A stretch of 64,000 nt of DNA, taken from assembly GCF_030013595.1 (NCBI RefSeq), contig NZ_CP122768.1. One strand, 5' to 3'. This document shows, piece after piece, positions 1-3,305 of this stretch. Under the pieces are notes generated by a model. That model had not been told where the DNA came from. It made no database searches and was given only the letters and a program-made list of their open reading frames with translations. How positions within the stretch are numbered: position 1 is the stretch's first letter; each line of letters opens with the position of its first letter. Made by a program: the position numbers and the translations under genes. Source of the stretch: Escherichia coli. GTDB lineage: Bacteria > Pseudomonadota > Gammaproteobacteria > Enterobacterales > Enterobacteriaceae.

Positions 1-1233
1 TTCTCTTTTTAAACTGTATGTCTTCTGGATTTCCCACTAACTGACTGAAATCTCCTTTCATAACTCTTTCGCTTGTTTCAAAGAGCTGTATTGCTATCGA
101 GTCGATTAATTCCTTTTTGGACAGAGATGCTTGTTCATAAAATTTGGTGACTAACTCTGTTGGTAACTTTCTTGAGACGACTTTAATGGACAGTCTCTGA
201 AATAGGTAAGGTGCCACCACGCCCACACTGAAAGGGTGAATCCTCCCTGGATTTAATAATTTTATTGTGACGTTTTCAAAAACTAGCTCATTGATTTTAC
301 TATTTATGAATTCCATTAAATACTTATCTAATGATAATGTTACCGACGCAACCGCTTCTATCACTTGTTTAAATGGCTCGCCTTTCAAGGATTTAAAAAA
401 CTCTTTGTTATAACCAAAGAAATCCACAAAACCTAAATTTATTCGATTTTCTTCTTTAGTATTTGAAATGCGAATTTGAAGTTGTTTTAAGTCTTCATCG
501 GTCAAGTATTTTAAACCATAGTCATCAAGCGCGTTACGTATAACTTTATCTGCAGATTCTAAGTCGATTACAGTTTTTACATTAAAAAACAATGATAACA
601 ATGAATCATACTTATGAACTCGCAAGGTTAAATCTGTTGCATTTGATGCGGTTACATTTATACGTCTCAAAAGATCAATAACTTTACTAATTGGTAGGCT
701 GTTTTCAAAAATTTTGAATGACTCGTATTCAGATACAACATCTTTTATATACTTACTGATAGTATGAGACTTTATTTCCACCTCAACTTCGGTTGAGTAA
801 GAATGAATTAGTGAGTTTGTAGTTTCAGCGATGTCATTTGATACATACAACTTATATTCGAAACAATCAGGAGCGGGAAGCAACTATTATCAATAATGGA
901 AAACAATAAAAATTTAATTATTTCTCTTAATGCTTGCGGTCTAGTTATTCTACCTTGCATTTTTTTACATTGTATTAAACCACTTACAACACCGTTATGG
1001 TATAGCACGCAGTCGCGTCCTCTTTCAGAAACTCCTTGCATTAAAGATATTGAGGATATATTTTTATGCTTTCCATCTTCAATTTCGTTCTTTACTAACA
1101 AATAACATAGCAACTCAAATTCTCGATCACCTAATTCTGAAAAGGGAAGCAATCCGATACCAGAATCTATAGTCCATGGTCTATATCCTGATTGAGCCTC
1201 GATATTAATTTGTTCGTCACTGATTTTTTTCAC
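1..1233 (-). pseudogene. Mrr-type PD-(D/E)xK nuclease-domain protein with a long helical C-terminal region; frame broken near 884-887; 3' end lies beyond the window
   Basis: ORF 808..1233 carries a restriction-endonuclease-like core (GDREFELL...RGRDCVL...IQCKK). Hand translation shows a different frame open from 883 down to position 1 (LLPAPDCFEYKLYVSNDIAETT...GNPEDIQFKKR). This looks like one gene split by a 1-nt frame change. Strongly AT-rich. Confidence 0.6.
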
Positions 1234-1548
1234 TTAAATCTCCTTCTAATCTTATTGACCTACTCCCTACATTGTAACAGGGGATGATGATAAGGTGTAT
1301 CTTTCGAGCTATAAGCACGATAAATAAGTGATTAAAAATGACTCTTTAAACTATTTTAATTTAAAAAATTAATTGTTAGTTCTAATTATGGTATGAGGGC
1401 ATTTTCGGCATAGTTCTAACCATATACTTTGGTAAAAATGACTGTTACGGAACAGACCATAGTAATGCCTGCTATTGGCACGGAGCGGGCCGCCTGAGCG
1501 CCGTGGGGTCTGCAAACGGTAAGCATACCGATAACTATACGCTTGGCC

Positions 1549-1968
1549 TTAGTAACTTTTGCTCCCCTCAATAAATCCGCCATCTTTTATCGGACTGCAA
1601 TGTCCTTCTTCATCAATCAGTTGCTCGTCTTTCAGGTAGGTATATCGATAGATAATTGAGCCATTATCCATCTCACCATTGGTTCGTTTCATTAGGAGAG
1701 TAAAATGTAACGGGCTGTCCCTATATCGAGCTATTCCATGAATATTGGCAAGTACCTCATATTGACGCTCAGGTGATAACCCTTTAAATACATCGAGATA
1801 TCCATGGAATGTTCCATAGAGTGAAGAAGTGTAGATCAGTCGCTGCTCTGGACCAGTAACTTTAAGAGTAATTTGTTCACCCGTATTACAGGTTAGCTTG
1901 GCGGGAAATGTCTCAGCCTGAGCAGAAGAAATAGTCAAGCTTAAAATTATCAGGTAGCAATATTTCAT
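1549..1968 (-). CDS. small secreted protein of unknown function
   Basis: Internal ATG at 1968 gives MKYCYLIILSLTISSAQA/ETF, a typical cleavable signal peptide. AT-rich cargo context. The 5' extension of the listed ORF is unlikely to be real. Confidence 0.6.
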   Translation of the reverse strand: MKYCYLIILSLTISSAQAETFPAKLTCNTGEQITLKVTGPEQRLIYTSSLYGTFHGYLDVFKGLSPERQYEVLANIHGIARYRDSPLHFTLLMKRTNGEMDNGSIIYRYTYLKDEQLIDEEGHCSPIKDGGFIEGSKSY

Positions 1969-2248
1969 GTGATTAGAATGTCCAAAACTAACATGTATAC
2001 TCGGGATTCTATAACTAGTTGGATGTAGACCCAAGATGTATTGGACTATTCTTCGGTTGTAGTTGGTCAAATCATATATTTTATGTCAGCAATGTCTACT
2101 TTTGGCACATAGCAGACCAGAGACACTGGCGTAAAGCCATGGAGGATCGGTGGGAGGAGGTAAAAATCCTCTCATGCAAAAAATACGCAAAATCGATAAC
2201 AGTTGGAAATCATTCAATACTCGCACTATCGGAAGTTCACCAGCCAGT

Positions 2249-2286
2249 CGTAGCACGTTCTTGCATATGACGTGGCTACGGGTTTC
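2249..2286. repeat. imperfect hairpin element, copy A (cgtagcacgttcttgcatatgacgtggctacgggtttc)
   Basis: About 33 of 38 nt identical to copy B at 3270..3305. Internal 9-10 bp stem. Confidence 0.65.
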
Positions 2287-2411
2287 GAGACCGACCCGAT
2301 CATCAAACGAAACATAAAATTAGCTCACATTATGAGGAAAGGTATCTTTTTGCGCTATGTAAATTCAAAGGGTTAGCCTCATTTTCCCGATGGCTTTCTC
2401 AACACTACTAG

Positions 2412-2440
2412 TTGTGAGCCCTTGCAATGTTCATTAATAT
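2412..2440 (+). promoter_or_regulatory. candidate sigma70 promoter for the GIY-YIG gene
   Basis: TTGTGA, 17-nt spacer, TAATAT, located 33 nt upstream of the ATG at 2473. Confidence 0.3.
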
Positions 2441-2472
2441 ACGTCTCACAAATAATTCACAGATATTGCAAA

Positions 2473-3246
2473 ATGGATATTACTGAGTTTCCTTCTGGAG
2501 TAATTGAACACCTTGGCTGGTATGTATACCGATTGATTGATCCTAGGGACGGAAGCACCTTCTATGTAGGGAAAGGCAAAGGTAACCGCGTATTTGCCCA
2601 TATGCGCGGTGAAGTGGCAGCGGCTGATGATGACGAGTTACTGAGCAACAAGCTAAAGCAAATCAGAGAAATAAGATTAGCGGGACTTGAAGTTATCCAC
2701 GTCATCCATCGACACGGAATGACTGATGAAAAGACGGCGTACGAAGTTGAAGCAGCACTTATTGATGCCTACCCTGGGTTAACGAATATCATGAATGGTG
2801 CTGGCAGCAATGAATTCGGCGCCGCGCATGTCAAAGAGTTGATAGCAACATATCAACCCGAAACCATAACATTTCATCATAAAGCATTAATGATTTCCGT
2901 TAACAGAAGTGCAAAGGATTCAGAGCTTTATGATGCGGTTCGATTTAGCTGGCGCATTAATGTCTCTCGCGCCAGCCAAGCAGAAGTCATTCTTGCTACT
3001 GTAAGGGGGATCGTTCGAGGGGTTTTCATTGCTGATAAATGGCTCAAATCAACACGTGAAAATTTCCCTACGATGAAATACTGGGACGAAGATCCTGACT
3101 TTGAGGCAACACAAAGTTCTCGCTATGGTTTTGAAGGTCGAGAAGCCCCACCTGAAATAGCAAATCTTTATCTTGGAAAAAAAATACCAGATGAATTAAG
3201 AAAAAAAGGAGCTATGTCCCCGGTCCGTTACTCACCTAATTTTTGA
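2473..3246 (+). CDS. GIY-YIG nuclease-domain protein with an uncharacterised C-terminal domain
   Basis: N-terminus [27 protein letters not shown] matches the GIY...YIG core, with downstream R and E residues. ATG at 2473 is preferred over the listed TTG start at 2422. Confidence 0.75.
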
Positions 3247-3269
3247 GTCTTTAAGTGATAAGCATAAAC

Positions 3270-3305
3270 CGCAGCACGATCTTGCATACGACGTGCTACG
3301 GTTTC
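3270..3305. repeat. hairpin element copy B; probable bidirectional terminator between the GIY-YIG gene and pin
   Basis: cgcagcacgatcttgcatacgacgtgctacggtttc has a 10-bp stem with one mismatch. It abuts the pin stop codon (3304..3306). Confidence 0.6.

Follow-up and report, generated by a model that had tools for sequence, protein, structure and literature searches.

We analyzed a window of 64,000 nucleotides from Escherichia coli (contig NZ_CP122768.1 of assembly GCF_030013595.1), whose first 3.3 kb form an AT-rich island beside pinE, the invertase gene of a prophage. The island holds three cargo genes: one for a GIY-YIG nuclease of 257 amino acids (aa), an open reading frame (ORF) for a 139-aa protein with a signal peptide, and a broken gene that in its intact form encodes a 488-aa nuclease fusion. 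This content had been described beforehand from the sequence (hereafter the original prediction), together with a drop in guanine-plus-cytosine (GC) content left of pin, and both descriptions hold. At 38.3% GC, positions 1-3303 are the minimum among all 3.3-kb stretches of the window (median 52.5%, 1st percentile 41.2%); the fall comes in steps with no single edge, from 49.2% in pin to 43.7% in the GIY-YIG gene, 40.0% in the 139-aa gene and 33.2% in the 488-aa gene. The right boundary is exact: DNA homology to the K-12 prophage e14 ends at the pin stop codon (3303). On the left, the 488-aa gene is cut by the window edge, so that the island does continue leftward as predicted. We read the region, with considerable confidence, as the cargo arm next to the attachment site (att) of a defective e14/SfV-type prophage, a recombination hotspot with at least three separately acquired modules and not a single system.

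Counting outward from pin, the first module would be the GIY-YIG gene, which we identify below as CMoRE (PD-T4-3), in a cassette of its own within a conserved element whose place in other lambdoid phages is the stretch from the tail-fibre/pin genes to sib/attP. The second would be the gene of the 139-aa protein, a putative periplasmic beta-barrel, and the third that of the 488-aa putative nuclease. Their distributions differ widely. Among 5,426 complete E. coli genomes, the CMoRE cassette occurs in 851 (15.7%), and the distal 2 kb, with the 139-aa and 488-aa genes, in 38 (0.7%), all at identities of at least 99%. Every inspected copy lies at a prophage end next to phage tail-fibre/pin genes, or on a plasmid. 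Conservation of the island as core sequence in prophage-free strains, the finding named in the original prediction as fatal to it, is not what these counts and contexts show; that the region is core chromosome and merely AT-rich is accordingly an explanation to which we give practically no credence, and we found nothing in its favour.

The idea that the three genes work together as a single accessory or defence system, in the manner of an operon, deserves a fuller hearing. The genes are adjacent and all AT-rich, they occur together at identities of at least 99% in about 23 complete genomes, and the 139-aa and 488-aa genes share a strand. The GIY-YIG gene, however, lies on the opposite strand, belongs to a proven single-gene system and has a cassette present in 851 genomes, against 38 for the other two genes. 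Strain B1S11 carries the 139-aa and 488-aa genes without CMoRE, the 139-aa gene occurs alone on plasmids, and outside E. coli no homologue of the 139-aa gene adjoins one of the 488-aa gene. We regard a single system as largely refuted already and very improbable. Homology to related prophages breaks at 2103, 2276, 2284/3269 and 3303, individual prophages diverging at 2103, 2276 or 3303. The proposal that the whole island be treated as one accessory locus is not supported, given separate distributions, separate breakpoints and genes that travel alone elsewhere; its weaker form stands insofar as the island is indeed accessory prophage cargo, in 38 and 851 genomes for its two parts, and falls insofar as this cargo was taken for a unit.

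The gene nearest pin, labelled 'LEM-3-like GIY-YIG', is by its sequence matches the already published and crystallised CMoRE/PD-T4-3, and it is the only intact island gene of known function. Its product matches the PADLOC profile PD-T4-3 (PDLC04031; E=2.2e-140) over residues 1-256, aligned to positions 1-255 of 256, and also matches phrog_5356 (E=2.9e-143) and the Pfam family LEM-3_GIY-YIG. It has 254 of 257 residues in common with the CMoRE of E. coli O157:H7 (PDB 9U75; E=1e-172, end-to-end alignment), and the comparison with PDB 9U7U from APEC O1 gives E=1e-150. CMoRE is a single-component type IV restriction enzyme whose C-terminal domain binds 5-hydroxymethylcytosine (5hmC) or glucosyl-5hmC and whose N-terminal GIY-YIG domain cuts; hallmarks of the family are a third tyrosine (GIYxY-YIG) and an acidic autoinhibitory loop (PMC12923530). 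Both hallmarks can be read in the window protein, as Y17, Y19 and Y31 (G15-W-Y17-V-Y19 ... F-Y31-V-G) and as D52-D53-D54-E55, where 9U75 has DDDD and 9U7U DDDE. In its tyrosines, acidic loop and single-gene organisation the window protein is like the crystallised proteins of O157:H7 (9U75/9U8D) and APEC O1 (9U7U/9U7Z); it differs from 9U75 by three substitutions, at positions 55, 169 and 197, E55 being the residue of the APEC O1 protein. The neighbours of CMoRE vary among strains, and the cassette holds the CMoRE gene alone.

Cleavage of DNA containing 5hmC or glucosyl-5hmC and restriction of T-even phages have been demonstrated for proteins 98.8% and ~88% identical to the window allele (PMC12923530). 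Near-identical published proteins form dimers/tetramers, and their mechanism and phage range have been described (PMC12923530; PMC12366544; bioRxiv 10.1101/2024.12.20.629700); it is also on record that a native host is protected from Tevenvirinae and that cleavage by a distant homologue depends on DNA modification (PMC12366544; bioRxiv 10.1101/2024.12.20.629700). In the window protein, recognition of 5-hydroxymethyl- or glucosyl-hydroxymethyl-cytosine by the C-terminal domain would free the GIY-YIG domain from its block by the acidic loop, and the DNA would be cut. Because the gene is CMoRE, a lysogen of the window strain is predicted, by analogy with these proteins, to be protected from T-even phages, which would bear on phage typing and phage therapy. 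The practical result is the annotation. Full-length CMoRE/PD-T4-3 homologues of 38-45% identity are also encoded by jumbo phages (Serratia phage Moabite, NC_048792 6406-7161; Pseudomonas phage OBP, NC_016571 158703-159449), which suggests that virulent phages use a CMoRE-type enzyme against competitors with modified DNA.

The cassette is a sharply delimited unit. Imperfect direct repeats of 36 bp, 86-88% identical, flank a segment of ~985 bp, and the left repeat forms the terminal part of a non-coding element of ~100 bp. The original prediction mentions neither the element (2178-2286) nor the repeats (2249-2284 and 3270-3304). We found the element, at 88-90% identity, in 118 phage records from lambdoid and Shiga toxin (Stx) phages. 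In HK97 (NC_002167 20942-21038) it lies between tfa and int, where the annotated sib site is 4 bp away and the attP core ~190 bp; in the Stx2 phage 1717 it is ~470 bp from the att duplication. In HK97 the element is followed without a gap by what is left of the final codons of a pin-like gene, a sequence that recurs at window positions 3270-3316. RefSeq annotates a 'capsid protein' pseudogene at ~2182-2268, within the element; we take this as a mislabel, the translation making no sense as capsid and the DNA being that of the conserved non-coding phage element.

A natural empty site is found in strain B1S11, where window positions 1-2284 are joined precisely to 3269-3995 through a single repeat copy. 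A synthetic empty site, made by joining the element to the 3' end of pin, has a contiguous match over at least 80% of the query length in 173 complete genomes. From the B1S11 site and these junction matches we conclude that the CMoRE cassette is a clean insertion/deletion polymorphism. We take the ~100-bp element beside sib and attP to be the site of its insertion or exchange. The anatomy of this site is modestly new. Repeats within a conserved sib-adjacent element, together with natural empty sites, provide a handle for cataloguing cargo exchange at lambdoid prophage ends.

Beyond the element, the distal slot has varied occupants. In T16R it holds a 424-aa RelA/SpoT-like 'GTP pyrophosphokinase' (L030 5300-6574), which may be a defence gene of the toxSAS/CapRel type; in this strain, an IS26-flanked resistance region (fosA3, rmtB, blaTEM-1) replaces most of the prophage. 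The slot of CH425 contains an AraC regulator; that of FY10, a 359-aa gene, IS5, an integrase and a DUF4145 gene; and that of a lambda-like prophage at ssrA, ImmA/HTH/BRO genes. In K-12 e14, mcrA, the gene of another type IV enzyme, follows pin directly, in the same slot. The suggestion that prophage ends beside invertase and fibre modules are points of accretion is thus supported, and the island is an ordinary prophage cargo hotspot. A comparison of island content across strains with icd-integrated prophages had been proposed: cargo does vary among prophage ends; the eight chromosomal copies of the distal module inspected are all at thrW and none is at icd. As in the known defence hotspots encoded by prophages (those of P2 and P4, Rousset et al. 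2022, PMC9122126; prophage-borne systems, Vassallo et al. 2022, PMC9519451), a fixed phage position carries different defence or accessory genes in each strain. Unlike those hotspots, the position here is the arm between the pin/tail-fibre genes and attP of e14/SfV-like and lambda-like prophages, and it consists of two nested slots, the cassette slot within the sib-adjacent element and the distal slot. That McrA in e14 and CMoRE here, unrelated enzymes against modified DNA, share one position suggests steady pressure from phages with modified cytosine.

The 139-aa gene, an independent moron, encodes a protein with a typical Sec signal at its N-terminus (MKYCYLIILSLTISSAQA/ETF), two conserved cysteines and a confidently modelled all-beta barrel (predicted local distance difference test score, pLDDT, of 86). 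The family is small, with 11 relatives, all in Enterobacterales. In Citrobacter and Klebsiella, homologues are located next to umuDC and an SRAP gene at the ends of other prophages; in Pectobacterium, the homologue is within an integrase/relaxase element. Nine E. coli plasmid records carry the gene alone as a 100% identical copy. Window positions 1382-2080, that is, the gene with flanks of ~170-280 bp, recur at 100% identity on five large E. coli plasmids of 210-261 kb (for example NZ_CP063474.1 70989-71687), and the shorter stretch 1493-2080 at 99.7% identity on three plasmids of ~106 kb; on pEM18-18-42_1 the gene adjoins an IS5-family element. A search of PDB sequences with the protein gave nothing significant. 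We do not claim membership in the avidins or calycins, the likeness being at the level of fold alone with 5-10% identity. We guess, with little confidence, that the protein acts in the periplasm in binding or inhibition, and that it might be expressed from the lysogen.

The third module is represented in the window by a pseudogene alone. Compared with four intact copies, the window copy of the 488-aa gene has a 1-nt deletion at ~882, and it also runs off the left end; it is inactivated by the frameshift and contributes nothing here. In B1S11, the strain that also lacks the CMoRE cassette, the gene (L036 1169-2634) bears an independent 1-nt deletion at window-equivalent position 960. This second, independent frameshift hints that keeping the gene is costly.

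The family itself is the only lead at this locus beyond known biology. A profile search of 1.84 billion representatives retrieved 701 cluster representatives (E<=1e-3); roughly 50 of them, the best among those listed, retain the full architecture of ~485 aa. Full-length members come from Gamma- and Betaproteobacteria and from Bacteroidota. Residues E40, D74 and Q88-x-K90 are invariant, giving the E ... D ... (E/Q)xK constellation of Mrr-type PD-(D/E)xK nucleases on the restriction-endonuclease fold that an AlphaFold2 model (pLDDT 82.7) places at the N-terminus. One PADLOC LmuA model matches 36 of 44 relatives (best E=2.1e-9), in the nuclease head only, and Pfam Mrr_cat (PF04471) matches eight of the 44 (best E=5.7e-6). 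The helical tail of ~250 residues has no sequence match in PDB, Pfam, NCBIfam or PADLOC, and neither a PDB sequence search with the protein nor an alignment-profile search gave anything significant.

Taken by themselves, the first ~235 residues also match longer proteins, of 690-1,608 aa, with E values from 1e-40 to 1e-66. Eight of these long proteins were scanned: four have NB-ARC, NACHT, nSTAND or AAA-type NTPase domains (one of them also TPR), one has TPR repeats alone, and one TPR plus a PIN-TPR-GreABC module; PDC-M54A, a PADLOC candidate, is matched by two, and Pfam gives nothing for two. As the head is common to these STAND/TPR proteins, we consider it, by sequence comparison, a putative swappable immune effector. 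Genes of the 488-aa type were solitary in all five distant contexts inspected, four of which (Enterobacter, Pseudomonas, Stutzerimonas, Acinetobacter) are at the end of a prophage or integrative element; the Pectobacterium gene is at a contig end. The Enterobacter gene lies beside OLD-like and retron-like genes, and the Pseudomonas one near a methyltransferase gene.

The shared head calls to mind LmuA of Lamassu as well as Cap4 and Avs3/Avs4, with which the first ~235 residues of the 488-aa protein share the Mrr/Cap4-type PD-(D/E)xK fold; by sequence, these residues are related to the heads of the STAND/TPR proteins and to one LmuA model. Unlike those systems, the 488-aa protein lacks an SMC partner as well as SAVED/CARF and NTPase domains, and carries a helical tail. 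No SMC-like partner was found beside the gene in the E. coli island or in Pectobacterium, Enterobacter, Acinetobacter, Stutzerimonas and Pseudomonas, and no STAND NTPase domain was detected in the protein, which has only its head in common with the NB-ARC/NACHT/nSTAND proteins. The LmuA match could be taken as a sign that a Lamassu system has decayed here and that the gene encodes its LmuA subunit. However, no SMC-like LmuB or LmuC gene adjoins it in E. coli or in the five distant contexts, the match is confined to the nuclease head (model positions 20-167 of 336), and fusion of the same head to STAND/TPR proteins makes it a shared effector module and not a marker of Lamassu. As no inspected context holds an SMC-like partner, we do not assign the gene to Lamassu and consider such an origin most unlikely. 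A literature search for orphan single-gene LmuA/Mrr systems gave nothing relevant. We put forward, tentatively and as somewhat less than an even chance, that the family is an undescribed single-gene anti-phage system, with an Mrr/LmuA-type head known otherwise from Avs/NLR-like STAND-TPR sensors and a new helical sensor or brake domain, residing alone at the ends of prophages and integrative elements. The protein would then be a phage-triggered nuclease encoded by a single gene, with the helical tail acting as sensor or brake.

Several observations weigh against parts of this account. The functions proposed for the 139-aa and 488-aa proteins come solely from fold, domain sharing and neighbourhood, and the avidin-like fold of the former is generic. 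The E. coli 488-aa protein itself reaches only E=0.0036 on the LmuA model and does not match Pfam Mrr_cat, and a tblastn search with it against 50,697 phage genomes returned no match. The frameshift at ~882 is a contraction from three to two in a short single-base run and could be a sequencing error. For the cassette, the 36-bp repeats are only 86-88% identical, so that its mode of arrival is something we infer.

The type of prophage that carries the island can be read in part. As in K-12 e14, with its pinE-mcrA-icdC end, the integrase gene adjoins icd, as expected for integration at the 3' end of icd, and pinE DNA is 96.5% identical; the predicted association with icd is supported on this side. 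Unlike in e14, homology stops at the pin stop codon, beyond which e14 has mcrA (HNH family) and the window has CMoRE (GIY-YIG) and two further genes; moreover, the window prophage keeps complete head and tail genes and has lost its early region to an IS10 junction. Of the e14-type order pinE-mcrA-icd', pinE is present, mcrA is absent and no icd' fragment occurs in 1-3400, the distal junction lying beyond the window. Comparison of the icd 3' end and the K-12 mcrA-icdC stretch with positions 1-3400 yielded chance matches of 9-15 nt alone, K-12 icdC matches only window positions 26580-26797, and a tRNA scan of the window found no genes, with no thrW-type att visible. The original statement that neither attR nor an icd' fragment is present thus holds for the island.

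The prophage is defective. Some 17 kb of lysis, replication and immunity (early) genes of related intact prophages are missing, and between the late genes and the integrase gene the ends of an IS10-type element are visible, flanked by differing 9-mers (GGTTCAACA and TATTAAGCG), that is, without target duplication. The missing segment and the lack of a 9-bp duplication lead us to conclude that IS10 stands at the junction of a deletion or rearrangement. In relatives integrated at thrW, a 48-bp duplicate of the 3' end of thrW (core AATGGTGCCGATAATAGGAGTCGAACCTACGACCTTCGCATTACGAAT) terminates the arm, 393 bp past the 488-aa gene; the equivalent position would lie ~626 bp to the left of the window's first nucleotide. 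All eight inspected chromosomal copies of the distal module are at the thrW/pao site and none at icd, which, together with the IS10 junction, leaves two possible left junctions. IS10 may have linked the late/cargo arm of a thrW-type prophage to what remains of an e14 integrase at icd, in which case the left flank would be thrW'/pao and not icd'. The eight copies at the thrW/pao (CP4-6) site point this way, as do the 97-98% identity of window 1-24246 to thrW prophages and the absence of a target duplication, expected of a recombination or deletion junction. However, an adjacent deletion promoted by IS10 in a single icd prophage accounts equally well for the lack of a duplication and for the ~17 kb that were lost, and icd-integrating relatives with this late region are plausible since pin and fibre genes of this phage family are also present in K-12 e14. 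We therefore favour a single icd prophage with an IS10 adjacent deletion as the likely history, and hold a chimera to be the distinctly less probable one.

The features of the window are collected in Table 1. From left to right, the cargo is followed by pinE, the invertible fibre segment, baseplate, tail and head genes, terminase, an HNH gene, the IS10-type element, the integrase ORF, icd, and rluE through potB. The thrW prophages to which positions 1-24246 are 97-98% identical combine head genes of the lambdoid type with a contractile tail and with tail fibres invertible by pin.

Table 1. Positions of island, prophage and junction features in the 64,000-nt window (dot, no strand)
Feature	Position	Strand	Remarks
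488-aa gene, first 411 codons	1-1233	-	Intact form WP_000723924.1; pseudogene; 3' end beyond window start; start codon at 1233
Residual ORF of frameshifted 488-aa gene	808-1233	-	141 codons: 117 native residues (whole nuclease core) and 24 out-of-frame
Gene of 139-aa secreted small beta-barrel protein (predicted)	1549-1968	-	WP_001333214.1; independent moron
Conserved non-coding element of lambdoid phages	2178-2286	.	88-90% identical in 118 phage records; context in HK97 and Stx2 phage 1717
Left copy of 36-bp imperfect direct repeat	2249-2284	.	Brackets CMoRE cassette
CMoRE/PD-T4-3 cassette, ~985 bp	2285-3269	+	Discrete insertion/deletion unit; empty site in B1S11
CMoRE/PD-T4-3 GIY-YIG gene	2473-3246	+	PADLOC, Pfam and PDB matches
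Right copy of direct repeat	3270-3304	.	Directly abuts pin stop codon
pinE serine invertase	3304-3894	-	Resolvase and HTH_7; island boundary, not cargo
Terminase genes	21323-23556		Prophage late region
HNH gene	23673-24122		Between terminase and IS10-type element
IS10-type element	24248-25576	+	Joins phage late genes to integrase gene
Integrase ORF	25605-26519	+	Prophage/chromosome junction on the int side, with icd
icd	26633-27883	-	Prophage/chromosome junction on the int side, with integrase ORF

Other scans of the island added little. None of the three cargo proteins matched an NCBIfam model. A promoter/terminator scan of positions 1-4000 was uninformative, with no terminators and no enrichment relative to shuffled sequences. 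An Rfam scan of 1-4200 placed CssrB, a small RNA of Shigella, at 3270-3326 (minus strand), over the 3' end of pin and the right repeat; at 32 bits against a gathering score of 76, this sub-threshold candidate was rejected.

Within the tail operon there is a further AT-rich pocket (GC ~34%), at 11139-11669 on the minus strand. It corresponds to a 176-aa ORF with an N-terminal hydrophobic segment, located between the DNA-circularisation and tape-measure genes, and a similar ORF of 531 bp is present in CH425; it is probably another moron. The adjacent tape-measure region (11761-13593, minus strand) consists of two ORFs, 11761-12780 and 12826-13593, and the window does not align to the reference prophage between 11065 and 13967, the tape-measure gene being either divergent or broken. 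Past potB, from ~39600 to 64000, a comparison with strain UMNF18 shows a second phage-tail cluster with P2-like D, X, tube and sheath genes, tail-fibre genes, and Mu-like baseplate and tape-measure genes, which is a separate prophage or tailocin-like element.

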